This document shows, one piece after another, positions 3,807 to 29,256 of a stretch of DNA of 38,863 nt. The stretch spans positions 1 through 38,863 of the forward strand of contig JAZSFV010000146.1 in the NCBI GenBank assembly GCA_045532395.1. The letters run 5' to 3'. Under the pieces are notes generated by a model. That model did not search any database. It was not told where the DNA came from and saw only the letters and a program-made list of their open reading frames with translations. Each line of letters starts with the position of its first letter. The stretch's first letter is position 1. A program made the position numbers and the translations under genes. Source of the DNA: Acutalibacteraceae bacterium. Lineage in GTDB: Bacteria; Bacillota; Clostridia; Oscillospirales; Acutalibacteraceae.

Positions 3807-3861
3807 TTTATCCTCTCCTTTTTACCGTTATATTCTACAACATAATAAACAATTTTACAAG

Positions 3862-3901: not shown

Positions 3902-3907
3902 ATATGA

Positions 3908-6040: not shown

Positions 6041-6043
6041 TTT

Positions 6044-6529: not shown

Positions 6530-6646
6530 AAAAACACCTCTCAATAACTTTAACAATATAAATAATTTTTGTCAATAATCTGCTTGTAAATTTTTAATAT
6601 GTAGTGTAGAATATTTTAAAAGAATTTTTTCGTGAGGTGAGCCCGG

Positions 6647-8056
6647 GTGAGCAGTATTTTTTCTTTTTTCATGGCAGTAATTCAATTTTGTCTTATGTGG
6701 TTTGCGCCAATTGCAGGGAGCCACGAAATTATGATTGACACAACAAAAACTTATCAGGTCTTTGAAGATTTCGGCACAAGCTCATGCTGGTGGGCGCAGA
6801 CAATTGACGACGAAAAAATGGCTGACAAAATCGCAAAAAAACTTTATAGCAAAGAAGAAGGCTTAGGGCTTAAAATTTTTCGTTATAATATCGGTGGCGG
6901 TGAAGCGGATAACCCCGATACGAGAATATGGGATACATCACGAAGAACAGAAAGCTTTTATGTTCTGAACGAAGAAACAGGCGAATACGAATACGACTTT
7001 ACAAGAGATAAAAACGCACGAAGAATGCTTGACCTTGCAGTCAGGTACGGTGCAGAAAAAGTTATTCTTTTCTGCAACAGCCCTCATTTTTCAATGACAA
7101 AAAGCGGTCATGCTTCAGGCGGTCTCCAGCAGAACGTTTCTAACCTGCTCAAAGAAAATTATATGGCATTTGTTGACTATGTTCTGACTATTGCCGACTG
7201 GTTTGTAGCAGAAGGTTATCCCGTTTACGCCATTTCCCCCATCAATGAACCTCAATGGTCATGGGGCGGTGAATGGGTAGGCCAGGAAGGTTGCCATTAT
7301 GAAATTGATGAAGCAATAGAGCTTCTTGAACTTTTTGCAACCGAAATGCAGAAAAGAAACAGCCCTTATAAATTAAGCGGTCCTGAAAGCGGAGAAATGA
7401 GCTGGAATCATTACGAATATGTTGAAAAGTTTTTTGCAAGTGAAATTTTAAATAACTACTGCGATTCTTTTGCAGGACATTCCTATTGGATGGACACAAA
7501 AGGTGCTGAAAAAGCAGAAGTCGGCGAAAAATTCAGAAAAGATTATCCCGATAAAAAATATGAAATGAGTGAATGGTGCGAATTGCCTCTCACCATAGAC
7601 AGCAAAACAATTGAAAGCGGTCTTCACATGTCAGGAGTTATTGTTGACGACCTGACAAAAATGAACGCAGTTTCATGGCAGAGCTGGACGGCAGTCAACG
7701 GTGACGGACTTCTTGACAGAGTTGACGGCGAGCTTATAACATATAACAGATATTATGCATTCATGCACTTCACTTCCTTTATAAAACCCGGAATGGAAAG
7801 AGCAAGAATTTTTGATAACTTCGGCAAAAAAACAAAATTAAAAACAGTTGCGTTTATTGACGAAAACACAACTGTGATTGTTATTGTAAACCCTGAAGAA
7901 AAAGGGGAAGAAATTAAGTTTAATTGTCTTTCAGGAAATGCAGAAATTTATCTTACAGACGAAACACATAATTGTGAAAAAATTTACGAGGGAGAATTTA
8001 ACAAAAAAATAAATATCCCTCAAAAAAGTATTATGACAATTAAGGTTACTGTTTAA
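6647..8056 (+). CDS. Glycoside hydrolase family 30-like (O-glycosyl hydrolase)
   Basis: 469 aa. GTG start with GAGGTGA 6 nt upstream. Hydrophobic N-terminus. ISPINEPQW (acid/base Glu) and YEMSEWCE (nucleophile Glu) spaced as in GH30 TIM barrels, plus a C-terminal beta-sandwich. Confidence 0.65.
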   Translation: MSSIFSFFMAVIQFCLMWFAPIAGSHEIMIDTTKTYQVFEDFGTSSCWWAQTIDDEKMADKIAKKLYSKEEGLGLKIFRYNIGGGEADNPDTRIWDTSRRTESFYVLNEETGEYEYDFTRDKNARRMLDLAVRYGAEKVILFCNSPHFSMTKSGHASGGLQQNVSNLLKENYMAFVDYVLTIADWFVAEGYPVYAISPINEPQWSWGGEWVGQEGCHYEIDEAIELLELFATEMQKRNSPYKLSGPESGEMSWNHYEYVEKFFASEILNNYCDSFAGHSYWMDTKGAEKAEVGEKFRKDYPDKKYEMSEWCELPLTIDSKTIESGLHMSGVIVDDLTKMNAVSWQSWTAVNGDGLLDRVDGELITYNRYYAFMHFTSFIKPGMERARIFDNFGKKTKLKTVAFIDENTTVIVIVNPEEKGEEIKFNCLSGNAEIYLTDETHNCEKIYEGEFNKKINIPQKSIMTIKVTV

Positions 8057-13612: not shown

Positions 13613-15586
13613 ATGAAAAAAATTACTGCTTTTATACTTTCGTTTATAATGATATTTTCTGTTTTATGTATGCCCGTTAATGCATCAGACGAAGAAATAA
13701 AAGTGCCTGCTATCGCAGAGTTTTTTGAAAAAACTTTCGGCGCTTTAATAAGCATAAGTGCAAGATATTTCAATTCGGTTTTCAATATAAATTCCGACAC
13801 TGTTCCCACACCCATAGTGCGTGAAGAAAATTGGGAAAGTTTTGACGGAAATATTGATTTCACACCTGAAATAACTTTAGAAGCAGAAACATGGGTTTGC
13901 AATGAAATCGTTCTGGAAAGCGACAAAACTTATGCTGACCCCTTCAATGACGTTGACGTTGATTTAATTCTCTACGGCAACGGCAGAAAATACACAATCC
14001 CCGCTTTCTGGGATGGCAAAAACACATGGAAAATCCGTTTTGTATGCCCCGAAAAAGGCGAATGGTTTTTTGAAACAGTTTGCACTGATAAAGAAAACAC
14101 TTCTTTAAACGGAAAAACAGGTAAAGTAAACTGCGCTGAATATTCAGGCGACCTTGATATTTACAAAAACGGTTTTATTACAACACGTTACGGCAAAAAA
14201 TACCTTACTTACCGGAACGGCACACCTTTCTTCTACCTTGGCGATACTCACTGGAGTTTAGGTGACGAAACCGTTGACATGGTAAAAACAATCTGCGAAA
14301 AGAGAGTTTCACAAGGCTTTACTGTTTTCCAGAGCGAGCCTATCGGTGCTCAATTTGACTTGGCTGACGGCATAAAAGATAATGATATTGCAGGATTTAA
14401 AGTAAACGATGAAAAATTCAGGATAATCGCAGACCACGGTCTTGTACACGCAAACGCACAGTTTTTCTTCCCCTATTCTATGGAGTTGCTTATCCGCAAC
14501 TTTGGCGGAGTTGAAGCTGACGGAGAAATGACAGACGGGGTCAGAACTTACCTTGAAAAAATTTCACGTTATTGGGTTGCACGTTATTCTGCTTACCCCG
14601 TTATGTGGACATTAGGTCAGGAAGTTGACAACGATTTTTATTGGAACGACACAACTCACCCTGAATGGAATTATGCGAACAACCCATACAAGCTTGTGGC
14701 TGAATATATTTCAAAGTATGACCCTTACACTCAGCCCATTACTGCCCATCAGGAAAACAGCGGTGCAACTGCCGCTTACGGTGACGGCAAAGGCACAGGC
14801 GAGAATGAAACAGTTTATTTTGAAGATGCGATGCCATCATGCTTCAGAGATGTTGAATCACACGATTTTTATGCAGCACAGTGGACACCTTCAAAAACTT
14901 CTCAGCTTGATTTCAAACGCGAAAAAGATTTCTGGTTTAACTCTCAGGGCAAACCCGTTATAAATTACGAGGGACAATACTGCTACCTGTGGACTAAAAA
15001 CTTCGGTGCAAGAATGCAGGGCTGGACATCTTACCTTAACGGAATGTACGGCTACGGCTGGGGCGGCCACGACACATGGAGCTACCTTAACATTTATGAC
15101 GAAGAAAACGATTCATCTGACGGTGTAGATACAATCACAAGCGAAGAAAAGAAAAACGCAACATGGGAAGATGCTCTTGAATACGAAAGCTCATACCAGT
15201 CAGGCTATATGAGATATTTCCTTGAGAAAACAGAGTGGTATAATTTAATCCCCCGCTTTGATGATAAGTCATATTTTACCCCTTGCGTTAACGTTTACTA
15301 CACTTACGCAAGCAACGAAGATAACTCTGAAATCGTAATTTATTTCTATTCCTTTACAGATACCACAATTGCAGAAAAAGTAAACACAAAACTTTTTGGC
15401 GGAGTTATGACCGGCACTATCGGAAACCTTGAAAAAAATGCTGAATATACTTACCAGTGGTTTAACCCCGTAACAAACGAGTATGGCGAAGAAATGACGT
15501 TCACTTCAAGTAAATTCGGCACTTATTACATCGGAAACAAGCCGGCTTCAAGCGACATGGTGCTTCTCGTCAGAGAAATTAAATAA
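13613..15586 (+). CDS. Exported DUF5060 + DUF4038 (GH140-like) glycoside hydrolase
   Basis: Signal peptide MKKITAFILSFIMIFSVLCMPVNA. FWDGKNTWKIRFVCPEKGEWFF is a DUF5060-type Ig domain. GTPFFYLGDTHWSL is typical of the DUF4038 TIM barrel. Confidence 0.6.
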   Translation: MKKITAFILSFIMIFSVLCMPVNASDEEIKVPAIAEFFEKTFGALISISARYFNSVFNINSDTVPTPIVREENWESFDGNIDFTPEITLEAETWVCNEIVLESDKTYADPFNDVDVDLILYGNGRKYTIPAFWDGKNTWKIRFVCPEKGEWFFETVCTDKENTSLNGKTGKVNCAEYSGDLDIYKNGFITTRYGKKYLTYRNGTPFFYLGDTHWSLGDETVDMVKTICEKRVSQGFTVFQSEPIGAQFDLADGIKDNDIAGFKVNDEKFRIIADHGLVHANAQFFFPYSMELLIRNFGGVEADGEMTDGVRTYLEKISRYWVARYSAYPVMWTLGQEVDNDFYWNDTTHPEWNYANNPYKLVAEYISKYDPYTQPITAHQENSGATAAYGDGKGTGENETVYFEDAMPSCFRDVESHDFYAAQWTPSKTSQLDFKREKDFWFNSQGKPVINYEGQYCYLWTKNFGARMQGWTSYLNGMYGYGWGGHDTWSYLNIYDEENDSSDGVDTITSEEKKNATWEDALEYESSYQSGYMRYFLEKTEWYNLIPRFDDKSYFTPCVNVYYTYASNEDNSEIVIYFYSFTDTTIAEKVNTKLFGGVMTGTIGNLEKNAEYTYQWFNPVTNEYGEEMTFTSSKFGTYYIGNKPASSDMVLLVREIK

Positions 15587-18198: not shown

Positions 18199-19830
18199 TC
18201 AACCGAATAATTCACCGGCAATTAATCTTTGGTATAAACCACCGAAGAATCTGAACACGTCAAGCATAATGTCAAAAATATCGTATGTGTCAAGGTCGCC
18301 TTCAACGCCGTCACCACCGTAGCAACCGATATTTGTTGATGTTATTTTTTCACCGTAAAAATCGTATTCCATCTTTTCAATATCGTCTCTTTCAAGACCT
18401 GCACCGATAAGTTTTGAGCCTTTAAGAAGACGGAAACTGTTTACGTCAGCCATATCATCTCCTGCAAAGTCAGGTCTTGTGTTCATTGAAAGCAAATCAA
18501 ATGGCGGGTTGGGTGCCATATAGTAGCAGTTGTTTTTGAAATCTGTTTTTGCATTAAGGTTACGGTCATTATAGTAAACGTAATAGCCGGGCTTGAAAGA
18601 GAAAATATTATTTGCAACAATACCGCTTTCAACGTTTACAACGTGCATTTCAGGACCGTTGACTATTGTGTTGTTGTAGAAACTGAACTCAACTTCACCT
18701 GAGCCGCTTGCCATACTGTTTCTGCCAACGTTGTCGTTAACTGAAAGGCAATAACGCACTGTGTTACCTATCTGCGGTCTGCCACCCATTGCATTGTTGC
18801 ATATAAATCTTATGTTATCGTGTGAGTAAACGTACTGATATGTACAGTAGTTTGAATCGGCGTCAAAGTCAACTGTCATTGCATCGCCATAGTTTTTCTG
18901 ACCGGCAATTTCAGTGTTCTCAATAACACTGTTTTTAGAGCCCCAGAACCACATTGAAGCAGTGAAATACTCTATGCTACCGTCAGGTAACGGCTCTGCA
19001 CCGCCAAGGCAAGTGTTGTAAGAAACGCAGTCTGTAACTCTCGCGCCGTCACACACACCTACAACGATAGCCTCTGCATACATGTTGTTGAAGTAACATC
19101 CTTCAACAAGAACATTTTTATTGTATGTTCTTTCAACTTTTGCGTGAGTTTCTGCAGGGTTGCCTCTTACAATACCCCAGAGCATAAATCCGTTAGCACA
19201 GTTTTCTACTGTACAGTTTCTGATTGTAAGGTCGTTTACTGTCTGCTTATAAAATTCTTCGGGTCCCCAGAGACCGTTTATCATAATCGCTGCACGTGCA
19301 TCTGCCGCACCGCTTCCGAACGGGTCTCTTGCATGGCGGTCATAGTTCTGCATATCGTAGAAATCTACATTTTCAATAACCATACCGTTTGACTGTTTGT
19401 TGACACCTCTTATCCAGATACCGCCGCCGTTGGGAGCAGTAATTGCAACATCAGAAACTGTTACATACTCGCAATCAACAAAATCAAAAACTTCGTTGTG
19501 GTTTGAAGTTCTCAAAATCGGCTTTTCTTCAGTTTCGTCACCGTAAGAAGAAATAACGATAGGGTTTTCTTTTGTGCCTGAAACTGTAAGACCTACTTCC
19601 ATTTCGTAAACGCCGCCACGTTTGAAAAGCACTTTTGTGCCGGGAACAAACTCCCAGTCACCATGGTTGATTGTTTTCCACGCACTGTCTTCACTGCGGC
19701 CTGTGTTTGAGTCGTCACCATTTACGCTGTCAATGTAATATACGGGAGCACTGTCAGCTGAAAAGCCGAAAATTGCCAGACAAGACATCAACACCGTAAC
19801 ACAAAGGATAATTGAAATTAATTTTTTCAA
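18199..19830 (-). CDS. Exported right-handed parallel beta-helix repeat protein
   Basis: TTG start with GAGGTG RBS. Signal peptide MKKLISIILCVTVLMSCLAIFGFSA. Repeated N/G-rich beta-helix turns. Confidence 0.65.
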   Translation of the reverse strand: MKKLISIILCVTVLMSCLAIFGFSADSAPVYYIDSVNGDDSNTGRSEDSAWKTINHGDWEFVPGTKVLFKRGGVYEMEVGLTVSGTKENPIVISSYGDETEEKPILRTSNHNEVFDFVDCEYVTVSDVAITAPNGGGIWIRGVNKQSNGMVIENVDFYDMQNYDRHARDPFGSGAADARAAIMINGLWGPEEFYKQTVNDLTIRNCTVENCANGFMLWGIVRGNPAETHAKVERTYNKNVLVEGCYFNNMYAEAIVVGVCDGARVTDCVSYNTCLGGAEPLPDGSIEYFTASMWFWGSKNSVIENTEIAGQKNYGDAMTVDFDADSNYCTYQYVYSHDNIRFICNNAMGGRPQIGNTVRYCLSVNDNVGRNSMASGSGEVEFSFYNNTIVNGPEMHVVNVESGIVANNIFSFKPGYYVYYNDRNLNAKTDFKNNCYYMAPNPPFDLLSMNTRPDFAGDDMADVNSFRLLKGSKLIGAGLERDDIEKMEYDFYGEKITSTNIGCYGGDGVEGDLDTYDIFDIMLDVFRFFGGLYQRLIAGELFG

Positions 19831-19894: not shown

Positions 19895-19915
19895 ACACTT
19901 TTTGAATATTTTTAA

Positions 19916-19952
19916 ATAAAAAAGTCGGAGAATCCGTAGAAACTCCGACTTT
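19916..19952 (-). terminator. Rho-independent terminator closing the fibre/lysis operon
   Basis: On the minus strand: AAAGTCGGAG-TTTCTACGGATT-CTCCGACTTT followed by TTTTATTT, 5 nt after the endolysin stop. Confidence 0.8.
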
Positions 19953-19956
19953 GTTT

Positions 19957-20598
19957 TTATATTTCAGCCCATGTTTTAGGGCCGGCTATACCGTCTGCCA
20001 CCAGACCTTTTGATTTCTGAAAATTTTTAAGAGCAAATTCTGTGTTTTTACCGAACACACCGTCACAGATAAGTTTTTTATTGTCACTGCCCTTAAAGCC
20101 CATTTTATCAAGGCTTGTCTGCAGTGATTTTACACATTCCCCGCTTGAGCCGAGCTTCACCGTTTCAAAAAAACTTTTTACCGAGTATGTACTGCCGTCT
20201 TTTCTGTATCTGAAAAATGATTTTTTCTTTCTGGTATCAACGTGAATAAATTTCTGATACTTACTGTCAAGACCTACTCCCGTAAAGCCAAGCTTTTCGG
20301 CAAACCTTGCCGCTTCTTCAAGTTCTGAATTATCAGAAATTGTTATATCAGCCGCAAGTCCGTACAGGTGTTGGGAGTTGCTTACTCCGCCAACTTTTTT
20401 GTTATAACTTTGTGTTCTGTAAGCAGAAGAAATATTTATAACACCGAATTTATCTCTCAGCTTCTGCAGAAGATTTACTAATTTTTCGTCAATTAAAATT
20501 TCATCTGCTCCGTCACGGCTTCTGAATTCTTTTACCTTGAAATTTTCAGAAAGATTTTTGTTTCCGTCAGTTCTGAGTGAATATTTTTTAACCGCCAA
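19957..20598 (-). CDS. Phage-type endolysin: M15 zinc peptidase domain + PG_binding_1 domain
   Basis: SAYRTQSYN...SQHLYGLAAD...IHVD gives the H-x6-D...H zinc ligands. C-terminal GECVKSLQTSLDKMGF...DGVFGKNTEFALKNFQKSKGLVADGIAGPKTW is a peptidoglycan-binding repeat. Likely TTG start at 20598, using the GAGGAG formed by the last holin codons. The track's GTG at 20607 is the alternative. Confidence 0.85.
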   Translation of the reverse strand: MAVKKYSLRTDGNKNLSENFKVKEFRSRDGADEILIDEKLVNLLQKLRDKFGVINISSAYRTQSYNKKVGGVSNSQHLYGLAADITISDNSELEEAARFAEKLGFTGVGLDSKYQKFIHVDTRKKKSFFRYRKDGSTYSVKSFFETVKLGSSGECVKSLQTSLDKMGFKGSDNKKLICDGVFGKNTEFALKNFQKSKGLVADGIAGPKTWAEI

Positions 20599-20603
20599 AA
20601 ACG

Positions 20604-20930
20604 TCACTCCTCAATTTCCGTCAGTTGTTTTTCCCATGCCTTTTTTGCTTTGAGAAGAACATTTTCTATAATTTTTTCAAGCCTTTTTTCTGTGAGAAAA
20701 GTTTTAAGAATGAGAGGCATTTTGGAATAAACTTTTTTCACCACAAAGGCAAGCTTCATTTCACCGCTTTTTTCTCCGTAAAGTTCTTCTGCATCTGTCA
20801 CAAGAGAAAAAATATCGGCTTTAAGATAATCAAGTTTGTTTGTAAAAATCGAGCGGATTATTACAAACGCAAGTGAAACGATAAGAAGTATATCGCTCCA
20901 ATACTGCTCTGTAAACTGTAAAATTTTCAT
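20604..20930 (-). CDS. Holin-like small membrane protein (LL-H-type layout)
   Basis: 108 aa with one N-terminal TM (ILLIVSLAFVIIRSIF) and a charged C-terminal tail. Sits directly upstream of the endolysin and overlaps it. Confidence 0.5.
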   Translation of the reverse strand: MKILQFTEQYWSDILLIVSLAFVIIRSIFTNKLDYLKADIFSLVTDAEELYGEKSGEMKLAFVVKKVYSKMPLILKTFLTEKRLEKIIENVLLKAKKAWEKQLTEIEE

Positions 20931-21230
20931 TTATATGTGCTCCGTTTCTTTTATTTCATCTATTCTTTTATGTGCCTGCTTGCAGCTTTCTTCAACACGT
21001 GTCACACGCTCTGCAATAGTTTCAAGTTTCTGATTCACTGCTCTGTTTTCCCGTTTAAGGTCGTCAATACCTGCTTTTATGTAGCCAACGTCTGACTGCA
21101 GAACTCCCCGTCCCTGAGATTCATTTTCAATATCTTTATGCGAATTTCTACGGTGAGTAAGCACCGAAAAAACAACAGAAAAAGCAAGACTCAGAACTGT
21201 GCAGATTAAACCTGTTCCCAAATGTGTCAT
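20931..21230 (-). CDS. Small membrane protein: N-terminal TM + C-terminal coiled coil (BhlA/UviB-like layout)
   Basis: 99 aa from the ATG at 21230. TM GTGLICTVLSLAFSVVFSVLT, then a heptad-rich region DDLKRENRAVNQKLETIAERVTRVEESCKQAHKRIDEIK. Its stop abuts the next ATG. It occupies the xhlA position of PBSX-type lysis cassettes. Confidence 0.5.
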   Translation of the reverse strand: MTHLGTGLICTVLSLAFSVVFSVLTHRRNSHKDIENESQGRGVLQSDVGYIKAGIDDLKRENRAVNQKLETIAERVTRVEESCKQAHKRIDEIKETEHI

Positions 21231-21293
21231 ACAAAAGCTCCGCAAAGAAGGAAGAAGAAAAATGCTGTGTACATGGAAAAAATATTCAGAAGA

Positions 21294-21434
21294 TTATATA
21301 TCATAATTTTCTCCCGTAATTTCTTCAAACTGTTCAATGTCAATCCAGCCTTTTAAAACTGCATCGGCAACACGGTTTATATTCCAGAAACCGTCATCAA
21401 AATATTTTTTCACTTTTTCAAATCTGCTCATCAT
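21294..21434 (-). CDS. XkdX-family phage protein (46 aa)
   Basis: Too short for the ORF track. MMSRFEKVKKYFDDGFWNINRVADAVLKGWIDIEQFEEITGENYDI matches the XkdX pattern (F..vk.yyd.g.w....V...V.KG.It.eqy.eITGe.Y). GGAGGAGG RBS. Confidence 0.7.
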   Translation of the reverse strand: MMSRFEKVKKYFDDGFWNINRVADAVLKGWIDIEQFEEITGENYDI

Positions 21435-21573
21435 TTTCCTCCTCCAGTTCAACGTCGCACATCATAGCAATATAATCCATATCGGACAAAATTTTTTTAA
21501 GCTTTACAGAAAGAATCTGATTCTTTTTTCTTTCTTCAATTAACTGTTCTGAAATAGTTTTATACTTAAACAT
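21418..21573 (-). CDS. Hypothetical 51-aa protein (xkdW position)
   Basis: Absent from the ORF track. AAGGAG lies 7 nt before the ATG. MFKYKTISEQLIEERKKNQILSVKLKKILSDMDYIAMMCDVELEEENDEQI. Overlaps the XkdX start by 17 nt. Confidence 0.45.
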   Translation of the reverse strand: MFKYKTISEQLIEERKKNQILSVKLKKILSDMDYIAMMCDVELEEENDEQI

Positions 21574-21584
21574 AAATTAACTCC

Positions 21585-23147
21585 TTAACATATTGCGCAT
21601 GTGGGCACTACACCAAACGCATGAACCTTTGCAGAACTCACCGTGCCTACGCCACCGTCAGTAAGCACACGAAGATATCCGCTATCGCCGGGTGCTGCAT
21701 TTCTCAGCCACCAATGACGGGGTGAGCCTGTATAGTTTTTGATTCTTATTGCATCGGCTTCAAAATTGGGTTTCTGCCATGTTGAATTATCTTTGAAATA
21801 AGGGTAGTGGTTTGTGCCTTCAACATAAACTTCTTCTGAACTTATAATGAAAAATTTATCCGCTGTTTCCACAGTTGTTCCGTCAGGTAAAACAGTTGTT
21901 TTTTTGACGGGATTTACAGCACTGAGAAAATCTTCATCAAGACCATTCATAAAACCTGCAACAGACATATAATCTTTAGGTGCTAAAGAGTAGTTGCTCT
22001 GTCGCTCCCACCAATCAGTTTTATCAGAGTTAAGCCATTGTCTTATATCTGATTTCTGATAGTTAAGGTTACCCATATCACTGTGAATTCTGTAGTTTGA
22101 AGATAACAGGTTGATGCCTGTCATATCGCTCTGGTTTTTTGAAACCATTGTCACGTCGGTAGTGTAAACAATCTCTTCGTCCTGACCGTAAACATACACC
22201 TTGCCTTCTGATATTCTGATTAAACTGTATGGTGCAAGTTCGTTTTCAAAAGTAAACGCAACGTAATCAGGTGTATCTGCGTAGTTTGTAAGAGTAGTGT
22301 AATAATCTCCCGGCTGCAGATTTCTGATTGTATACGAAGAAGCTTCCGGCATAGAAAAAGGAATGTTTGAAATACATTCATCAAGCTGTAATGTAAGCGA
22401 ATGGCGAAATCCCTCTTGTGCAGGTATATCAACATCAATGCCGATTACAATCCACACAAGTTCTTTGTCATTTCTCATACATGAAAATCTGTCGCCGATT
22501 TTAATAAATTCCGATGCTCTGCCTGAACGGACAAGATATTTCAGACCTTCCCACGATTCAATATATGAGGCATCATAGCTTTTTGCATTCAATTCATCAA
22601 GTGCATCTTTCACATTCTGCGATTTGAGACCGCTGACACCATTATGGTAAGTGATTTTTTCTGCACTTATATTTTCAGGTTTACCTTTTACGCAATTCCA
22701 ATGAGTGTAGGGAAAAAGTGTTTTATCCTCATAAGTAAGCATTACGCTCTCTCCGAGAATGCCGAAATGCATACGTGCTTTCGTAAAGTTTTCAAAACTT
22801 TCGTCGATAGAAACAAAGTTCATGTTTTCCCAGTTTTCTTCTGTGCCGTAATAGTAAATATCAGTAAGATTCGCACATGAGGTAAACGAGCCTGAAATTG
22901 TATTTATAGCTTTGCCGAAATATATTTTTTCCAGACTTTCACAGTTAAACGTGTCGAAATAAGTTTTTTCCACATTGTTGCCTATTACAAGTTCTTTAAG
23001 GTTCGTAAAATTTATAAAAGTAAACCTTATTTCCTTTACGGGCAAAGAATTGTATGTATCGGGAATCACAACTTTTTCAAGCGTAGTATCCGATACTTTC
23101 GTTAAAACATATCCGTCACCGGCAGAATTTAAAACATAAGTAAACAT
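21585..23147 (-). CDS. Fibre-tip-like protein: BspA-type LRR N-domain + tail-fibre motif + DUF6273-like C-domain
   Basis: 520 aa, no signal peptide. LRR_5-like repeats at residues ~25-120 (VIPDTYNSLPVKEI...FTNLKELVIGNNV...CESLEKIYFGKAINTI...CANLTDIYY). NVKDALDELN is a fibre motif. C-terminal IRQWLNS, HWWLRNA and FGVVP resemble DUF6273. GGAGGTG RBS. Confidence 0.65.
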   Translation of the reverse strand: MFTYVLNSAGDGYVLTKVSDTTLEKVVIPDTYNSLPVKEIRFTFINFTNLKELVIGNNVEKTYFDTFNCESLEKIYFGKAINTISGSFTSCANLTDIYYYGTEENWENMNFVSIDESFENFTKARMHFGILGESVMLTYEDKTLFPYTHWNCVKGKPENISAEKITYHNGVSGLKSQNVKDALDELNAKSYDASYIESWEGLKYLVRSGRASEFIKIGDRFSCMRNDKELVWIVIGIDVDIPAQEGFRHSLTLQLDECISNIPFSMPEASSYTIRNLQPGDYYTTLTNYADTPDYVAFTFENELAPYSLIRISEGKVYVYGQDEEIVYTTDVTMVSKNQSDMTGINLLSSNYRIHSDMGNLNYQKSDIRQWLNSDKTDWWERQSNYSLAPKDYMSVAGFMNGLDEDFLSAVNPVKKTTVLPDGTTVETADKFFIISSEEVYVEGTNHYPYFKDNSTWQKPNFEADAIRIKNYTGSPRHWWLRNAAPGDSGYLRVLTDGGVGTVSSAKVHAFGVVPTCAIC

Positions 23148-23150
23148 TGT

Positions 23151-24818
23151 TTACACCTCCATAAAAACAGGCTCTTTGGTTTCGTAACCGATAACGCTTA
23201 TATAAGCCGTTTCGTTTTCTGTTTCCGCTTCACAGCCGTTAACTGAAATTTTTTCAATTATATTCTTTTCAGCATCAGACGGTGCGTGAAGTTCATTTGA
23301 ATGATTGAAAGCCTTGTCGTAATTAATTTTAAGTTCATCATTGAATCCGCAAGGGTCAGGAATGTCCGAAAGGTCGTTGTAAGAGCCTGAAAAAGCAATC
23401 TCATGAAGAGAATCAACATCTGCTTTCATTGAAAGCTCTGTCAATGCTTTTGACAGTTTTTCTTTTTCTTCGTCTGTGAAATCGTTTGAAGAAAGACCCT
23501 TGCCCGTTTCAGTTTTTACTGCGCCGATATTGTTAAGTGCAATAGCTTTTTCATCGTCAGTAAGATTCTGTGTTTTATAAGACACTGCCATATCATTTTT
23601 AAGGTCGCTTAATTTTTGGGGCAATTCTGTTTTATCCGCCTTCATTGAAATATCCTGATGCTCTGTCAATGCACGTGATAATTTTTCTTTTTCTCTGTCA
23701 GTAAAATCATTTGAAGAAAGACCTTTGCCTGCTTCAGCTTTTACTGCACCGATATTGATTCGTGCTATAAGCTTCTGGGAATCTGTCAGGTCCTGCTTAA
23801 TATAAGAAATTGCCATATCGTTTTTAAGGTCGCTTAATTTTTTCGGCACTTCCGTTTTATCGGCTTTCATAGAAATATCATCTACAAAATTCTTCTGATT
23901 CACCCAATCCATGGTTGCATATCCTGCAAGGCTCTGGTGGTGAGTGAGATATGCCCTGTCAAGCTTTGCAGGGGTAACACTTCCGTCTGAAATTTTAGAA
24001 GTTGTAATTGAATTAGGTCTTATTTTTACCTCATTCACACAATAGTTTGAAAGGTGTATGTTTGCAATTGAAGAATCTGCAATTTTCTGACCGCTTATAT
24101 TTTTATCACAGATTTTATCTGCCGTAATTGAGCCGTCTTTAAGTTTTTCACCGCCGATAGTTTTGTCAGCTATTTTTTCGCCTGTAACACTCTGTTCATC
24201 AATGGTGTCCGTTTTGACTGCATTTTTTGCAATTTTTGAACTTGTAACGCAGGAATCCTGAAGTTGCGCCATTGTAATGGTCGAGATTTTCAATTTGTTT
24301 CCATCAACAGAAAATTTCTTAAGTCTTTCACCGTCAATTTCATATGTTTCAAGAATTTCAGTCACTGCATTTTCCACATTTTCTTTAAACTTCACATCAG
24401 GCCTTACGGTCTCGAGCATCATACCCTCTCCTGTGAGTGAAGGAGAAAACTGCAAAGTAAATATCCCTGATTTTATGATTGCACTTACGTTTCCGTCTGA
24501 ATCAAGCTCATATGCATCAACCTGCACCATAACGCTGGGTGCTACGGCAATATAATCGTAAATGGGGCAGTAAATATACCCGTTTGAAAAATAAATTCCC
24601 TTTGTAGAAGAAGAATCACGATAAATATTTTCCGTAATTATTTTCCTTGAAAGAGAAAACGGTTCAAAACTCAGAGTATAATATTTAATACTTGACGCCT
24701 GAAAATCCGTATTAAGTTTTATCTTAAGCCTTTTGGCACAGTATTCTTCAATTCTTCCGCAGCCGGAGCTGAAACTGAAAGAACCTGACGAATCCATGCT
24801 GACCGTTAAATCTGTCAT
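23151..24818 (-). CDS. Phage tail-fibre-like repeat protein
   Basis: 555 aa, no signal peptide. Residues ~186-286 form about ten short S/T-x-x-x-K-I-x-D repeats. Residues 316-468 form 2.1 tandem ~75-aa repeats carrying the GLSSNDFTDxEKEKL fibre motif. Confidence 0.7.
   Translation of the reverse strand: MTDLTVSMDSSGSFSFSSGCGRIEEYCAKRLKIKLNTDFQASSIKYYTLSFEPFSLSRKIITENIYRDSSSTKGIYFSNGYIYCPIYDYIAVAPSVMVQVDAYELDSDGNVSAIIKSGIFTLQFSPSLTGEGMMLETVRPDVKFKENVENAVTEILETYEIDGERLKKFSVDGNKLKISTITMAQLQDSCVTSSKIAKNAVKTDTIDEQSVTGEKIADKTIGGEKLKDGSITADKICDKNISGQKIADSSIANIHLSNYCVNEVKIRPNSITTSKISDGSVTPAKLDRAYLTHHQSLAGYATMDWVNQKNFVDDISMKADKTEVPKKLSDLKNDMAISYIKQDLTDSQKLIARINIGAVKAEAGKGLSSNDFTDREKEKLSRALTEHQDISMKADKTELPQKLSDLKNDMAVSYKTQNLTDDEKAIALNNIGAVKTETGKGLSSNDFTDEEKEKLSKALTELSMKADVDSLHEIAFSGSYNDLSDIPDPCGFNDELKINYDKAFNHSNELHAPSDAEKNIIEKISVNGCEAETENETAYISVIGYETKEPVFMEV
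23415..23873 (-). repeat. Intragenic tandem repeat (about 225 nt x 2.1, diverged)
   Basis: SMKADKTEVPKKLSDLKNDMAISYIKQDLTDSQKLIARINIGAVKAEAGKGLSSNDFTDREKEKLSRALTEHQDI is followed by SMKADKTELPQKLSDLKNDMAVSYKTQNLTDDEKAIALNNIGAVKTETGKGLSSNDFTDEEKEKLSKALTEL and then SMKADV. Confidence 0.9.
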
Positions 24819-24835
24819 ATATCTTCCTTTCTGCC

Positions 24836-25051
24836 TCAGGAATAATAATGAAGAAGAGTTCTGGCGTTGGATGCCATTTCATTTTTCTGATTATAAAAAA
24901 GTTTAAGTAAAGTCTGCACGATATAGATTTCATCGCTGTTATGTTCCTTTATCGCCCGCCTCAGTCTTTCGCGATAAACTGCAATTTTTTCATCCATTAT
25001 GCTGACTTCTTCAAGATAATCTTCACCAAGTTCTTTTAATGTTTTACTCAA
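24836..25051 (-). CDS. Hypothetical 71-aa helical protein, translationally coupled to the regulator
   Basis: TTG start overlaps the upstream TGA (TTGA). AAGGGGGA RBS 6 nt upstream. No recognisable motif. Confidence 0.5.
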   Translation of the reverse strand: MSKTLKELGEDYLEEVSIMDEKIAVYRERLRRAIKEHNSDEIYIVQTLLKLFYNQKNEMASNARTLLHYYS

Positions 25052-25668
25052 ATGAAATCCCCCTTTAAAATGTAATCAGCCGAAACGCTGAAAAAGTCTG
25101 ATAAAACAGTAATCTCCCGTGCGTCAAGCTGTTCTTTTCCCTTTAACACTTTTTCAAATTTATTTCTGTCAAGTCCGACAGATTCACAGAGTAATTCCTG
25201 TCCGATATTTTCCTTATTCATAAGGCGGATAAGCCGCATACTCACCGCAGGTAAAGAAAATTTTCTGCGTGAAACTGCCCCTTTGTTAATCATAACTTCA
25301 AGGGGCATCATTTTGTCGTTCTCGCAACTGTTCTGATAAAAAACGACATATTTAAGTTTTTCTCTGATTTCCTTTACCGCATCGTTGTAATACCTGTACA
25401 CATTTGATTCGCACGTGCCCATGCTTTCTGCAACCGCACCGATTTTTTCTCCGCCGAAAAATACTCTTTCAAAAACTTCACGTCTGCCCTTTGTCAGCTC
25501 GTTTTCAATAACAAAGCAGATAAGTCTCTGCATATCACGCTTTCTCTTTCTCTCAAGATACTGTCTTGGATTTTCTATGCTCTTGTCATAGAAAAAATCA
25601 AATTCTTTTTCTGCCGTCAGTATCTCCTCTGATGAAAACTGTGTTGAAGTAAGAGGTGTTTTTGTCAA
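25048..25668 (-). CDS. Fusion regulator: sigma-70 region-4-like HTH + C-terminal XRE-type HTH
   Basis: TTG start with AAAGGAGAAA RBS. LTKGRREVFERVFFGGEKIGAVAESMGTCESNVYRYYNDAVKEIREKL is sigma region 4-like. MRLIRLMNKENIGQELLCESVGLDRNKFEKVLKGKEQLDAREITVLSDFFSVSADYILKG is HTH_3-like. Confidence 0.65.
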   Translation of the reverse strand: MTKTPLTSTQFSSEEILTAEKEFDFFYDKSIENPRQYLERKRKRDMQRLICFVIENELTKGRREVFERVFFGGEKIGAVAESMGTCESNVYRYYNDAVKEIREKLKYVVFYQNSCENDKMMPLEVMINKGAVSRRKFSLPAVSMRLIRLMNKENIGQELLCESVGLDRNKFEKVLKGKEQLDAREITVLSDFFSVSADYILKGDFI

Positions 25669-25697
25669 ATTTTTATTTCTCCTTTCTCATTTATAAC

Positions 25698-25711
25698 CGA
25701 ACAAATGTTCG
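25698..25711. promoter_or_regulatory. LexA (DinR) Cheo box
   Basis: CGAACAAATGTTCG matches the Firmicute consensus CGAAC-RNRY-GTTCG at every defined position. On the minus strand it is followed after 2 nt by TATAAA (25695-25690), and the RBS/TTG of the regulator lie about 20-30 nt further on. Confidence 0.65.
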
Positions 25712-25713
25712 TT

Positions 25714-25729
25714 TACACTATTTAGTGTA
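25714..25729. promoter_or_regulatory. Perfect 7-2-7 palindrome TACACTA-TT-TAGTGTA (candidate second operator)
   Basis: Read directly from the sequence. It lies 2 nt from the Cheo box, over the expected -35 region of the minus-strand promoter. Confidence 0.4.
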
Positions 25730-25828
25730 GAGTAGATTTGTGGTTTTTTCAAACGAACATCCCACTAAAGTGACATTATACGGACTCATCTCTCTTGAGT
25801 GCTTGACAAAGTTTTTTGCCGATAAATG

Positions 25829-25857
25829 TTGACAAAAATCAAAAAACAGTTATTATA
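25829..25857 (+). promoter_or_regulatory. Sigma-A-type promoter of the divergent sigma/anti-sigma operon
   Basis: TTGACA (25829-25834), 17 nt, then ATTATA (25852-25857). It lies inside the 5' extension of track ORF 25816, which argues for the downstream TTG start. Confidence 0.5.
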
Positions 25858-25902
25858 AACTTATATAGGTGTATTTTCTTTTGTACGGGGAGTGAAAAAG
25901 TC

Positions 25903-26424
25903 TTGAAAGAAATCGAAATTGCCGAAAAGATATGGCAGGAAAACGAGGTCTACATAAGAAAATTATGTAACTATAAATTGAGCAGCCACCCTGACCTTAT
26001 CGACGACTGCATGCAGGATGTTTTTCTCGCACTTATCACTGCTGTACACGATGAAAAAGAAATCAATAACCATAGAGCATGGCTTACAAAAGTAACCGTC
26101 AATAAGATAAACGACATTTACCGTGAAGAAAAGAAAAAGAATGAAAATCAGGTTTCCCTCGAGGAAGAAACTGTTACCTTAACTTCCGATTTTGACTATT
26201 CATATACAGAAGACATAACAGAAAAAGAGTTGGACAAGCATCTGGAAACAATTCTTCAATCTCTGAGTGACAACGAAAAAACACTTATTGAAGACTTTTA
26301 TCAGAATAATTTAAGCGGACGTGAAATTGCAGAAAAGTTAGGTATTACGGAAACTAACTTACGTCAGCAGATTTTCAGGCTTAAAAGAAAAGTAATAAAA
26401 AAAGTAAAAGAAATTTTTGAATAA
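25903..26424 (+). CDS. ECF-type sigma-70 family RNA polymerase sigma factor
   Basis: Region 2 (DDCMQDVFLALITAV...HRAWLTKVTVNKINDIYR) and region 4 (LSDNEKTLIEDFYQNNLSGREIAEKLGITETNLRQQIFRLKRKV). TTG start at 25903 with GGGGAGTG RBS. Confidence 0.8.
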   Translation: MKEIEIAEKIWQENEVYIRKLCNYKLSSHPDLIDDCMQDVFLALITAVHDEKEINNHRAWLTKVTVNKINDIYREEKKKNENQVSLEEETVTLTSDFDYSYTEDITEKELDKHLETILQSLSDNEKTLIEDFYQNNLSGREIAEKLGITETNLRQQIFRLKRKVIKKVKEIFE

Positions 26425-26475
26425 TTTTTGTAACATTCTGTAGTTTTAACGACTATATAAGTGAGGGATGAAAAA

Positions 26476-27252
26476 GTGGTTACAAGTTCTGATTTAATCA
26501 AACTTATAAAAGATAAAGAAAATAATTTCACCGAAGAAGAACTTAAAAAGATTCTTGATGCGGAGCTTATGAAAGATGAGTCAGAAATTGACACTGACTT
26601 GGTAGAGTGTTGCCTTCAGGCTCTTGAAGACGGCAAAAAACCGATGCCCGCCAAGAAAGAAAAGAAAAAAACTCTGAAATTTATTTTCTTTGCAGGTGCA
26701 GCTGCAGCTCTTATCTTTGTAAACATCATTGCGTTTTCAGACTTCGGCAAAAAAGACAACACAAATCAGGTAATCCACATCACTTCCCCCAACGCAACCA
26801 CACCCGTTAAGCCCTCACAGACCATAGTGGTTGAAGAAGTTACGGACATCAAGGGTGCACCCACTACAAACCCTGACGGCAACGCAGATTCTCTCGGTTT
26901 ATCTTTAAAAAGCCAACTGGAAAACGCCGGATTCACTGACGTGTCTTTACCTGCAGAAGTTATCAAAGCAGGCGAAGCTGCAATAAACATAAACGGCGAT
27001 ACAGTAACTTTTTCTTCAATCGTTAACGAACAAAGCATTAATATCGTAATTGCAAAAAATCAGCCTGCCCCCTCTATGAAAGCCCCCGAGGGAGCGGAAA
27101 GTCAGACGATAAATTCAAACGGGATTTCTGCCCTTGTAACAAGCGAAGACGGCGTGTCTGTCATCACTTACAGAAAAAATTCCCTGAATTATCAGATAAT
27201 CACAACTGTTTCACTTGAGGAGGCGGCAGAGATTGCAAAGACAATAAGGTAG
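26476..27252 (+). CDS. Putative anti-sigma factor / single-pass membrane protein (DUF4367-like C-domain)
   Basis: Cytoplasmic N-terminal region, one TM (LKFIFFAGAAAALIFVNIIAF), and an extracytoplasmic domain. Sits directly after the sigma gene. GTG start at 26476 (GAGGGA RBS), with 26461 as the alternative. Confidence 0.5.
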   Translation: MVTSSDLIKLIKDKENNFTEEELKKILDAELMKDESEIDTDLVECCLQALEDGKKPMPAKKEKKKTLKFIFFAGAAAALIFVNIIAFSDFGKKDNTNQVIHITSPNATTPVKPSQTIVVEEVTDIKGAPTTNPDGNADSLGLSLKSQLENAGFTDVSLPAEVIKAGEAAININGDTVTFSSIVNEQSINIVIAKNQPAPSMKAPEGAESQTINSNGISALVTSEDGVSVITYRKNSLNYQIITTVSLEEAAEIAKTIR

Positions 27253-27259
27253 TGATTTT

Positions 27260-27925
27260 ATGTCAAAAAAACTCTTGGCACTTACTCTTTCTTTGCTTAC
27301 ACTCTCGTTAGTTTTCACCGCTTGCAAAAAGCAGGCAGAAACAGAACAAAACGGAAATTCACAAGCTGATATTTCATCAACCAGCCTTCCTTATTCAAAG
27401 GGTACTTCATGGATAAGCCCTGAAACAAATGAAGAATGGGCAATTTCTGGCCCTACTGTTGCTTCTGAAATTGCAGTTTCAGACCCTACAAAATGTCCCG
27501 AAGAAAATTTAAACCCTTACGGCGTGAATTATCTTACAGGAATAAAGGAAATCACATTTTATTCAGGCGGAAAAACCAAAGCACCAACTTCACATCAGGC
27601 ATCGGAAGTTTTAAAAGTTCTCAATGAAGAACTTAACAGTAATTATTGGGATATGTTAAAACTTGCAGTAACCGAAGATGATATTGAAAATCTCAAAGCA
27701 AACACCACTTGCCTTGAAATCACATTCGGTTCAGCAACAAAAATCCGGGACAACTGCGATTGTATCGAGCCCTGCGTTTATGAATTTGATAAAATTCTTA
27801 TCACACTTGATAATGAAAACGCAAACACAATTTACTTTTCACAAAACGGAAGATATAAACATGGTCCCATAAGATTCCCCCATTCGGACCTTTCCGAAAA
27901 CCTTTTTAAAATTTTATCCGATTAA
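27260..27925 (+). CDS. Lipoprotein of unknown function
   Basis: Signal peptide with lipobox LSLVFTAC. 221 aa. Confidence 0.7.
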   Translation: MSKKLLALTLSLLTLSLVFTACKKQAETEQNGNSQADISSTSLPYSKGTSWISPETNEEWAISGPTVASEIAVSDPTKCPEENLNPYGVNYLTGIKEITFYSGGKTKAPTSHQASEVLKVLNEELNSNYWDMLKLAVTEDDIENLKANTTCLEITFGSATKIRDNCDCIEPCVYEFDKILITLDNENANTIYFSQNGRYKHGPIRFPHSDLSENLFKILSD

Positions 27926-27957: not shown

Positions 27958-28008
27958 TTGACTTTAAAACTAAATGCGTATATTATTAAACTAAAGGGAG
28001 GTTTTTGT

Positions 28009-29256
28009 ATGAAAAAAATAATTTCAATTGTTTTATGTCTTACCCTTATTTTACAGCTTGGCATTGTAGGCTTTGCTGCTGAAAACGAAACCGTTTCAAC
28101 AGGCTTTACCCAAGAAGATTTTCTTACCGTAAAAGGTAGGGATATCGTGAATCAGAAAGGTGAAAAAATTATTCTCAAAGGCGTAAACCTTGGCGGTTGG
28201 CTTATTCAGGAAGACTGGCTCTGCCCTTACGAGGAAGTAAAGGACCATCACGAAATGCTTGAGACTCTCATTGAACGTTTCGGCACTGAAAAAGCATATG
28301 AGCTTATGAACACTTATGAAGATAATTTCATCACAGAATACGACCTTGACCTTATCAAGGAAATGGGCTTCAATGCAGTGCGTGTGCCTTTTTGGTACAG
28401 AAATTTCTATTCAGACGATAAGGGCACAAAAATCCTTGACGAAAACGGAAAGTGGGATTTGTCAAAACTCGAATGGGTAGTAAGTGAATGTTCAGAAAGA
28501 AGACTTTACGTTGTTCTTGACATGCACGGTGCTCCCGGTTTCCAGAGTGACGCGCCTCACAGCGGTAAAGGCGACAGCTGCGGACTTTATGACGACACAG
28601 AAGAAGGCGAATTTTACCGCACACTTACTGATGAACTCTGGACGGAAATTGCTCTGCGTTTCAAAGAAAACCCTGCAGTTGCAATGTATGACCTTCTGAA
28701 TGAACCTATGTGCGACGTTGAATGCGGTGAACTTACAAGACGAGTAAAGAACGAATCAATCTATCTCCGCCTTTATGATACTGTACGTGCAGTAGATACT
28801 GACCATATTATTACCATGGAAGCAATCTGGACAGGTTTTGCTCTTCCCTGGGCTTGGGCAAGAGGCTGGGAAAATGTTGTTTATCAGGTTCATTTCTATA
28901 ATAATTCAGACTTCATTTTTGCATTCTTCCTGCTTCTTACAATAGTTCTGCATCCCACAGTGCCTCTGATGATGGGCGAATTTTATCCCCATCAGGAAAC
29001 AACATGGGAAGGCTGCTTCAAGTCTCTTAAAAACTTTGATTACTCCTGGTTTTTGTGGACCTACAAAGCCGCAAACCACGGAATGTGGGAAAGCGACTGG
29101 TGCCTGAAAGGTGCTGCAGACGGCTTCGAGCGAGCAAAAATCAAAACAGATTCCTATGAAGAAATCGCACGCAAATGGGGCGAAAAAATCCAGACACAAA
29201 ACTCCTACGTTGACACAGGCCACTACGACCGCGACGTAGCAAACCACCTTAAATAA
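28009..29256 (+). CDS. Exported glycoside hydrolase family 5
   Basis: ATG at 28009 with AGGGAGG RBS. Signal peptide MKKIISIVLCLTLILQLGIVGFA. GVNLGGWLIQEDW, AMYDLLNEP (acid/base) and MMGEF (nucleophile) motifs. Confidence 0.8.
   Translation: MKKIISIVLCLTLILQLGIVGFAAENETVSTGFTQEDFLTVKGRDIVNQKGEKIILKGVNLGGWLIQEDWLCPYEEVKDHHEMLETLIERFGTEKAYELMNTYEDNFITEYDLDLIKEMGFNAVRVPFWYRNFYSDDKGTKILDENGKWDLSKLEWVVSECSERRLYVVLDMHGAPGFQSDAPHSGKGDSCGLYDDTEEGEFYRTLTDELWTEIALRFKENPAVAMYDLLNEPMCDVECGELTRRVKNESIYLRLYDTVRAVDTDHIITMEAIWTGFALPWAWARGWENVVYQVHFYNNSDFIFAFFLLLTIVLHPTVPLMMGEFYPHQETTWEGCFKSLKNFDYSWFLWTYKAANHGMWESDWCLKGAADGFERAKIKTDSYEEIARKWGEKIQTQNSYVDTGHYDRDVANHLK

Follow-up and report, generated by a model that had tools for sequence, protein, structure and literature searches.

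Is an operon of phage-like fibre and lysis genes that has no virion gene in its neighbourhood the worn-down end of a prophage, or is it a working unit of the host chromosome? The question is raised by a cassette of nine genes in an Acutalibacteraceae bacterium (assembly GCA_045532395.1, contig JAZSFV010000146.1), of which a stretch of 38,863 nt was analysed; this whole stretch is called the window. The cassette runs on the minus strand from position 25668 to 19957 and consists of nine intact open reading frames (ORFs) coding, in operon order, for proteins of 206, 71, 555, 520, 51, 52, 104, 108 and 216 amino acids (aa). With moderate confidence it is read here as a domesticated, chromosomally fixed, phage-derived operon that would be triggered by the SOS response and would release leaderless binding proteins by lysis of the producer, with neither a virion nor a tail being made.

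Layout, recurrence and control of the cassette

The list of ORFs with their translations reproduced the intact nine-gene operon that had been described in an initial annotation of the window. The gene junctions are tight, as had been stated there, with overlaps of 4 nt or gaps of 0 to 17 nt, but a gap of about 48 nt between the gene for an XkdX-type protein (gene 6) and that for a transmembrane (TM)/coiled-coil protein (gene 7) had been missed. The annotation had also placed a Cheo (LexA) box with a promoter at one end of the operon and a terminator at the other, and both were located. The terminator, at 19915-19958 on the minus strand, was found by hairpin and repeat search and is of the intrinsic type, with arms of 16 nt, a loop of 12 nt and a T run. 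All other large ORFs in the window carry host-type Pfam domains, in agreement with the earlier description of the flanks as ordinary host genes. They include spoIIR, a trmA-like methyltransferase, glycosyltransferase GT2/GtrA, DUF2804 and several glycoside hydrolase (GH) genes as well as genes for a sulfatase, chromate transporters, FeoB, MutS2 and an extracytoplasmic function (ECF) sigma factor. Domain scans of the window revealed no terminase, portal, capsid, tail, integrase, replication or packaging genes, and a repeat search of it revealed no att-like repeats flanking the cassette, so that the claimed absence of virion and integrase genes and of such repeats was borne out.

Relatives of the cassette were collected by context look-ups and by a scan of one genome per GTDB species, and synteny was mapped with tblastn. 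The cassette was found in 12 GTDB species representatives and in metagenome contigs, together at least 16 further loci. The nine genes are present in identical order in every locus that is long enough, with the exception of locus L012, from which genes 5 and 6 are missing. The chromosomal site is near-constant: a GH5 cellulase gene and a divergent ECF sigma operon lie on one side, and genes for a 543-aa beta-helix protein, DUF2804, GtrA and GT2 proteins, trmA and spoIIR on the other. Exceptions are L024, with other host genes upstream, and L012 and L021, which are without the divergent sigma operon. No virion genes are present within 10 kb of the cassette in about 20 loci that represent five cassette lineages, and no full prophage was found at the cassette site in the relatives. 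The tube, sheath or tape-measure and baseplate genes that would adjoin the fibre gene of a tailocin are lacking both in the window and in the 10 kb around these loci. The cassette does not resemble a phage satellite or integrative element either, as integrase, replication and packaging genes and att repeats are absent and the site hardly changes.

The proteins encoded by the flanking host genes are 80-90 % identical between loci, those of the cassette 47-77 %; the cassette thus appears to evolve faster than its flanks, yet it stays intact. The ratio of nonsynonymous to synonymous substitution rates (dN/dS), calculated as Nei-Gojobori medians, lies at 0.13-0.27 across the nine genes of the cassette (0.11-0.22 when only the closest pairs are taken) and at 0.07-0.12 in the host flanks. 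These values indicate that all nine cassette genes are under purifying selection. Recurrence of the intact cassette without structural genes, mostly at the same site, combined with this selection speaks for long vertical retention and for the domestication that the initial annotation had suspected. Pseudogenes, dN/dS values near 1 and patchy presence, as expected of a decaying prophage, were not observed, apart from a single deletion variant. In this close relative (protein P0052, on an NCBI contig of 61,349 nt) a deletion of about 4 kb has taken the C-terminus of the fibre, genes 4 to 8 and the N-terminus of the endolysin, so that fibre residues 1-250 are now joined in frame to endolysin residues 90-216.

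Control by LexA is suggested by the region upstream of gene 1. A sigma-A-type promoter, TTGAAA-17 nt-TACACT, is located at 25724-25752 on the minus strand, and the palindromic Cheo/LexA box CGAACAAATGTTCG (25698-25711) lies directly downstream of its -10 hexamer. The box adjoins the core promoter as is typical of a LexA-controlled operon, and CGAACAAATGTTCG is the sole exact CGAAC-N4-GTTCG sequence in the window, where 0.01 would be expected from shuffled sequences. In an alignment of 14 loci, both promoter hexamers, the LexA box, the ribosome-binding site GAAAGGAGAA and the TTG start codon are invariant, while the spacer and the surrounding bases vary, which makes for a clear phylogenetic footprint. 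The regulatory elements are invariant although the cassette proteins are merely 47-77 % identical. Across 17 loci of the main family, box and promoter have been kept almost base-for-base. The exact 14-mer occurs in 18 entries with the cassette promoter, a count that includes one duplicate fetch (L017, identical to L011) and two separate contigs (L028 and L038); there is one exact match per locus and it is always at this promoter. In L024, L026, L030 and L031 the GAAC-N4-GTTC core rather than the exact 14-mer is retained. The SOS control predicted in the initial annotation is thus supported by conservation of operator and promoter in the main family and by a box in three distant lineages.

A second conserved element, TGTCAA-N16-AGTCC, is located further upstream (25782-25808, minus strand). 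It stands out as invariant alignment columns, has no other match in the window and is retained in loci without the divergent sigma gene. A version with one additional spacer nucleotide, TGTCAA-N17-AGTCC, lies upstream of the LexA-controlled promoter in the distant loci L030 (~131-158) and L031 (~385-412), the proteins of which are about 30 % identical to those of the window. Because of its -35/-10-like spacing, the element suggests a candidate second promoter, possibly of ECF type, or a binding site for the regulators specified by genes 1 and 2.

The cassette shares its upstream intergenic region with the divergent operon (25816-27925, plus strand), which codes for an ECF-type sigma factor of 202 aa, an anti-sigma-like DUF4367 membrane protein of 263 aa and a lipoprotein of 221 aa. 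The promoter of the sigma gene consists of a neighbouring GTCAAC element and a TATAAT-like box on the other strand. This operon evolves faster than the cassette, with identities of 26-59 % and dN/dS values of 0.37-0.39 for its two downstream genes, and in L012, L021 and L024 it does not adjoin the cassette. The two operons may be functionally linked, for instance in envelope-stress sensing or immunity. The surroundings of the cassette are also rich in secreted polysaccharide-degrading enzymes (window positions 1926-8056, 13613-15586, 18199-19830 and 27958-29256), namely a sulfatase, a GH141-like beta-helix protein, a GH30 enzyme, an apiosidase-like protein, the 543-aa beta-helix protein and the GH5 cellulase. 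This fits a fibre-degrading organism of the gut or rumen.

Proteins encoded by the cassette

Gene 3 (23151-24818) specifies a fibre-like protein of 555 aa in which an N-terminal beta-sandwich (residues 1-145) is followed by a pentapeptide-like solenoid (~146-295), two repeats of about 75 aa and a tip. Matches to tail-fibre families of PHROG are confined to residues ~144-360, and profile matches in the PDB are to beta-solenoid and pentapeptide repeats in the central region. The two repeats stem from a 225-nt tandem duplication (23435-23879, 79 % identity) and follow the pattern ..MKADKTE.P.KLSDLKND...LSSNDFTD.EKEKL..; the copy number of this unit probably accounts for the spread in orthologue length (434-637 aa). 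The exact 555-aa sequence has no database record, and about 50 full-length homologues are 45-81 % identical to it. Constraint is uneven along the chain. The N-domain has a median identity of 72 % and a dN/dS of 0.10, and values of 0.2-0.3 are reached in the solenoid, repeats and tip. In several lineages the tip has been replaced, homologues there covering only about 72 % of the query. A Foldseek search of the PDB with the AlphaFold2 (AF2) model gave only generic Ig/FN3-like matches, from which no partner could be inferred. The best match of the N-domain was a phage baseplate chain (9m8o_Q), with a non-significant E value of 2e-3. In tblastn searches of the INPHARED phages, only the central repeats of gene 3 matched phage fibres, not the N-domain, and two distant N-domains had no match at all. 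Pattern scans of IMG/VR with the fibre, three distant N-domain proteins and an intermediate alignment returned matches to the repeat region or nothing. One of two scans of JGI metagenomes was without matches and the other yielded three short contigs.

The 520-aa product of gene 4 (21585-23147) is a putative binding protein with a BspA-type leucine-rich repeat (LRR) region (residues 1-130), a disordered linker and a DUF6273 domain of the C-type-lectin fold (~216-520). Pfam assigned a weak LRR_5 match and DUF6273 (1.7e-12), and the AF2 model reached a predicted local distance difference test score (pLDDT) of 85. Its structural matches in the PDB were the IgA peptidase of Thomasclavelia ramosa and the BspA-type LRR proteins TpLRR and 4gt6; those in BFVD were DUF6273 proteins of gut phages (E 3e-20). 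The T. ramosa IgA peptidase's N-terminal domain is itself a DUF6273 domain (PMC12402451). The DUF6273 domain adopts a C-type-lectin fold and is often targeted by diversity-generating retroelements (DGRs) in the receptor-binding proteins of gut phages, those of Faecalibacterium among them (PMC10743442, PMC11792537). No baseplate-anchor domain was found in gene 4, which carries the BspA-type LRR in its place; by its domains, the protein is a phage-type receptor-binding head on an adhesin-type LRR and not on a baseplate anchor. The initial annotation had noted that both large proteins are without a signal peptide, and indeed no hydrophobic leader is seen in the N-terminal translations of either.

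A homologue with a BppU_N baseplate anchor and a DUF6273 domain is part of a siphophage tail module in L029 (10001-13627), in which a reverse transcriptase gene (RVT_1) follows two genes later and probably belongs to a DGR that diversifies the DUF6273 domain. A DGR acting on gene 4 of the cassette was considered and rejected: there is no RVT domain among the ORFs of the window, nor a template repeat or long direct repeat of the 3' end of gene 4.

Gene 5 (21418-21573) specifies a 51-aa acidic protein that is present in all loci with a DUF6273 domain and is a candidate assembly factor. Gene 6 (21294-21452) codes for a 52-aa member of the XkdX family (PF09693, 7.7e-15; TIGR01669), relatives of which have been called as 45 aa from an internal ATG. 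In L012 (11463-12476) gene 4 is shortened, its LRR having been kept and its DUF6273 half replaced, and genes 5 and 6 are lost. Because the two genes disappeared together with the DUF6273 half, they are suggested to act as assembly factors of that domain. Variants of gene 4 with the LRR but without the DUF6273 half, of 337-394 aa, occur in L012 and P0158/P0159.

Genes 1 and 2 form the regulatory part of the cassette. Gene 1 (25048-25668) specifies a putative DNA-binding regulator of 206 aa with a sigma-70 region-4-like helix-turn-helix (HTH; residues ~36-106) and an XRE/Cro-type HTH (~143-204). The Pfam scores are 20.6 bits for Sigma70_r4_2, below the cutoff, and 22 bits for HTH_26, at the cutoff, and orthologues carry both HTH domains as precomputed Pfam matches. 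Its dN/dS is 0.27 and a tblastn search of the INPHARED phages gave no match. The initial annotation had described a fused sigma-like and XRE regulator; both HTH types are indeed present in one chain, but no sigma region 2 was found in Pfam, PHROG and NCBIfam scans, and the protein is therefore not, as had been implied there, a sigma factor of the Xpf, UviA or TcdR type. The 71-aa helical protein encoded by gene 2 (24836-25051) is always paired with gene 1, belongs to a family with an invariant C-terminal L..YY, has a dN/dS of 0.14 and has no informative match in Pfam or the PDB. In B. subtilis, SigO and RsoA constitute a two-subunit sigma factor (PMC7826278, PMC10028694), and a layout of this type, a region-4-only protein beside a partner of about 9 kDa, is seen in the window and in L030, L031, L033 and L036. 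Similarity to region 2 was not detected in the gene 2 family: none of the 16 members examined gave a Sigma70_r2 signal, an hhalign comparison with an ECF sigma profile gave a probability of 0.6 %, and there was no sigma match in the PDB, these tests being made against Pfam, the PDB and the ECF profile. A two-subunit sigma factor of genes 1 and 2 fits the layout and is mentioned as a speculative lead only. The sigma-region-4 protein, its partner of 71-80 aa and the TGTCAA-N16/17-AGTCC element may nevertheless represent a new small transcription module.

The last three genes make up the lysis set. The 104-aa product of gene 7 (20931-21245; 99-104 aa in relatives) combines an N-terminal TM helix with a coiled coil and is classified as lysis-associated by its match to phrog_1863; no match was obtained in Pfam at E<=0.01. 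It is the most conserved protein of the cassette (64-77 % identity across loci, dN/dS 0.13). Gene 8 (20604-20930) codes for a putative single-TM holin of 108 aa (phrog_15303, 2.5e-19). Gene 9 (19957-20607) specifies a predicted endolysin of 216 aa with Peptidase_M15_3 and PG_binding_1 domains and without a signal peptide.

A phmmer search with residues 1-165 of the fibre against 1.8 billion representative proteins returned 73 proteins, in all of which the N-domain is N-terminal. They range from 132 to 1009 aa, apart from a weakly matching repeat protein of 2551 aa, and their C-terminal parts are collagen, Ig-like, glycerophosphodiester phosphodiesterase (GDPD) or the same solenoid repeats, as is typical of phage fibres. 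The N-region of one distant member matches the PHROG tail-fibre family phrog_10972. In L030 and L031, with N-domains 35-41 % identical to that of the window, a LexA box is followed by homologues of gene 1 (202 aa, 27-31 % identity) and of gene 2 (75 aa) and then by the fibre. Downstream of the fibre, L030 contains a 95-aa ORF, an r1t-type holin (Phage_r1t_holin) and then host genes; L031 is too short to show this part. L036, located between ilv/leuA and sugar-metabolism genes and thus host-flanked like L030, has a perfect Cheo box within the spacer of a TTGACA-17-TAAAAT promoter, unlike the position of the box in the main family. Its first three genes code for a Sigma70_r4_2 protein of 123 aa, a protein of 80 aa and a fibre of 608 aa; three small ORFs come next, and then an M23 peptidase, an ORF of 80 aa, a Phage_holin_1 and an ORF of 61 aa. 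In L033/L034 a 106-aa region-4-like protein and a 95-aa protein precede a collagen fibre, and no Cheo box was seen in these short contigs. The regulators are thus region-4-only proteins in L036 and L033 and homologues of gene 1 in L030 and L031. In none of these contexts did a virion gene appear. The conserved core is therefore the regulator pair and the N-domain fibre; in most cases LexA controls it and a lysis module of one kind or another comes after it. Fibre tips differ between the lineages, as do the lysis enzymes where they are visible. That LexA control and a lysis module have been retained convergently argues for both being functional parts.

The distant fibres of L031 (1348-4197, P0193) and L033 (1021-2679, P0243) carry a GDPD domain or collagen triple-helix repeats; the GDPD domain, in one distant fibre, is of the teichoic-acid type. 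L033/L034 continue with a Gram_pos_anchor (LPXTG) protein and lie near spoIIR, as does the cassette in the window. A partial RHS/YD-repeat-like ORF precedes the cassette in L033.

Proposed mode of action and its alternatives

In the unstressed cell, the operon would be held off by LexA bound to the Cheo box, which directly follows the -10 hexamer. DNA damage would lead to RecA-driven cleavage of LexA and derepression of a single transcript. The first products, the sigma-region-4/XRE protein and its 71-aa partner, would probably reinforce or gate expression, possibly via TGTCAA-N16-AGTCC. They would be followed by the leaderless fibre, which may trimerise and which combines a constrained N-domain with a fast-evolving shaft and tip, by the protein with LRR and DUF6273 C-type-lectin domains, and by two small chaperone-like proteins, the 51-aa protein and XkdX. 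The lysis set of TM/coiled-coil protein, single-TM holin-like protein and M15 endolysin would come last. When the producer lyses, the endolysin would escape along with the binding proteins, and they would act at the surfaces of other cells, in killing or targeting of competitors, in adhesion or in the masking of receptors. A co-released endolysin is able to act on Gram-positive cells from the outside.

More tentatively, these operons may form a self-sufficient and hitherto unrecognised class in the Oscillospirales, "tail-less fibre-lysis cassettes", in which lysis of a subpopulation frees receptor-binding proteins that act in trans without a tail or capsid. Such proteins could possibly guide the hydrolase to competitors, mask phage receptors of kin, serve in adhesion or decorate vesicles derived from lysis. 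In such a class the N-domain of the fibre would dock on a partner encoded by the cassette or by the cell, not on a baseplate.

A number of observations weigh against the proposed mode of action. All relatives of the cassette are metagenome-assembled genomes or metagenome contigs of Acutalibacteraceae/Oscillospiraceae from animal guts, organisms that are uncultured. The dS between loci, 0.6-1.3, is near saturation, so that the dN/dS values are approximate, though far from neutrality. The cassette is dispensable in some lineages, as P0052 illustrates, loss being the exception; this natural knock-out might serve as a comparison strain. No toxin or enzymatic domain was recognised in the 555-aa and 520-aa proteins, and a mechanism of killing is not evident. 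The AF2 monomer of the fibre has a low-confidence pLDDT of 53 (70-80 in the N-domain), and the match of gene 8 to a holin family (phrog_6918, 8e-4) is weak. Finally, the strongly conserved N-domain of the fibre resembles a docking domain, and a tail or baseplate specified at another locus could be its partner.

The last point is the basis of the main rival explanation, which we consider unlikely: the cassette would belong to a split-locus tailocin or a particle like a gene transfer agent (GTA), with its structural genes elsewhere, the regulator switching on that distant locus and the N-domain docking on the baseplate. Loci can be divided in this way, as the head spikes, tail fibres and lysis genes of Rhodobacter RcGTA are encoded apart from its structural cluster. 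That the N-domain is the most constrained part of the fibre and always N-terminal, with C-termini swapped between collagen, Ig and GDPD, is typical of baseplate-docking fibres. An operon that opens with a regulator gene, the phrog_10972 match of a distant N-region and the best, if non-significant, Foldseek match of the N-domain would suit a split locus as well. Against it stands the absence of structural genes from the window and from within 10 kb of about 20 loci in five lineages. An adaptor for the baseplate of a common phage would also have been expected in the INPHARED or IMG/VR scans, where the N-domain was not found, and wherever its context was examined the fibre gene was preceded by the regulator pair and never by a baseplate gene. 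To our knowledge, the Firmicutes tailocins described so far (PBSX, diffocin, monocin) are contiguous clusters, which again argues against dispersed genes.

Two further explanations retain the cassette as a unit but assign it another task, and both seem improbable. It might donate fibres to, or parasitise, co-resident prophages by placing alternative receptor-binding proteins on helper virions, thereby altering or sabotaging their host range, with its own lysis genes setting the timing. SOS control would coincide with prophage induction, DUF6273 and the tail-fibre repeats are receptor-binding modules of phages, and the tip of the fibre as well as the gene 4 C-terminus have been swapped between lineages. 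A donor of this kind is difficult to reconcile with one fixed chromosomal site maintained through speciation, with the lack of integrase, replication and packaging genes and att repeats, with an LRR in gene 4 instead of a BppU-type anchor, and with the failure to find a phage with a matching fibre N-domain; strict conservation in 16 or more lineages would hardly be expected if the cassette relied on a helper that differs from species to species. Alternatively, lysis itself might be the function, in an SOS-triggered suicide or abortive-infection module that aborts phage or releases DNA, vesicles or public goods, with the fibre and LRR proteins as passengers. The holin and endolysin of PBSX, under SOS control, do give rise to membrane vesicles in B. 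subtilis (PMC5589764), and LexA control with a complete lysis set is common to L030, L036 and the main family despite their differing enzymes. What all lineages share, however, is the regulator pair and the fibre N-domain and no particular lysis enzyme; the genes for the 555-aa and 520-aa proteins account for over half of the operon and evolve under purifying selection, and PADLOC matched the cassette to no known defence system, giving only trivial HTH, coiled-coil or repeat matches. Least probable by far is the decaying 3' end of a prophage, the main alternative in the initial annotation. The gene order is indeed reminiscent of a late operon's end, there are matches to XkdX and lysis PHROGs, and one relative (P0052) has suffered a large internal deletion, but decay is refuted by recurrence in at least 16 diverged loci with intact ORFs wherever these are long enough, by dN/dS values of 0.13-0.27, by an invariant promoter and operator and by the lack of a relative with a full prophage at the site.

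Comparison with known systems

The release of binding proteins by SOS-triggered lysis proposed here has counterparts in several systems. The end of the PBSX late operon (xkdV-xkdW-xkdX-xepA-xhlA-xhlB-xlyA) is SOS-inducible and has the same order of fibre, small proteins including XkdX, membrane/holin protein and hydrolase; like the cassette, PBSX is domesticated, chromosomally fixed and phage-derived. The initial annotation had described the gene order as mirroring this region, which holds as an analogy of gene order and for XkdX, a true homologue (PF09693, 7.7e-15) and the only one detected. No match to XhlA, XhlB, XlyA or XepA was obtained, and the endolysin is an M15 peptidase (Peptidase_M15_3) and not an amidase as in PBSX. 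Whereas PBSX has a full head and contractile-tail set in one cluster, the cassette has none. Control differs as well: PBSX employs the Xre repressor and the Xpf sigma factor, the cassette a LexA box on the operon and a sigma-region-4/XRE protein without region 2.

In type 10 secretion systems (T10SS), a phage-derived lysis cassette lies beside large leaderless cargo and a dedicated regulator, and a specialised subpopulation lyses (PMC10847048, PMC12485765). The cassette can be likened to the Tc toxin system of Yersinia entomophaga, TcdE/TcdL with TcdR of C. difficile, the chitinase systems of Serratia and Salmonella and the bcn/uviAB locus of C. perfringens. The bcn locus is DNA-damage inducible. 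Genes 7 to 9 place a holin-like protein, with a weak match, and a peptidoglycan hydrolase, with a strong one, beside the cargo, and the N-termini of the 555-aa and 520-aa proteins show no hydrophobic leader of the Sec or Tat kind. The putative cargo of the cassette differs in being phage receptor-binding proteins, a fibre and an LRR/C-type lectin protein, in which no toxin or enzyme domain was recognised; the regulator is not a group-5 sigma factor like TcdR and UviA, and LexA control would be direct.

Closer in cargo are PblA and PblB of the Streptococcus mitis phage SM1, signal-less fibre-like proteins that depend entirely on the holin and lysin of the phage to become surface-exposed, where they serve as adhesins (PMC2920869). 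They are virion components encoded by a complete inducible prophage, whereas the cassette is prophage-free and vertically inherited. Gene 4 shares its fold with the DUF6273 receptor-binding proteins of gut phages, such as tentaclins and the DGR targets of Faecalibacterium prophages, and with the T. ramosa IgA peptidase; its N-terminus is a BspA-type LRR in place of a BppU-type baseplate anchor or an Ig stalk. With the Firmicutes tailocins diffocin and monocin the cassette has in common a domesticated phage locus, receptor-binding proteins that evolve fast, lysis genes and, as predicted for the cassette, induction by stress. A tailocin also requires genes for tube, sheath, baseplate and tape measure next to those for the fibre, and these were not found in any cassette flank searched.

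Literature searches yielded no paper on a cassette that combines fibre and lysis genes but has no structural genes. Strong comparative evidence speaks for a functional, SOS-wired unit that belongs to a wider family. The cassette looks like a previously undescribed variant of domesticated phage-derived modules and of lysis-dependent release, with an unusual, minimal architecture, and it offers a testable case of exaptation of a prophage end after loss of the virion genes. If the released fibre and lectin act on other cells, they would constitute a novel kind of adhesin or of interbacterial effector with a narrow spectrum, and the cassettes would offer a natural supply of soluble receptor-binding proteins that suit uncultured Oscillospirales. 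Known domesticated phage parts are either whole machines, such as tailocins, GTAs and contractile injection systems, or bare lysis cassettes that export toxins, as in T10SS. If the proposed reading is correct, the cassette would be an intermediate design, in which the receptor-binding end and the lysis end of a phage have been wired to the SOS response and kept for a long time in abundant Clostridia of the gut and rumen.

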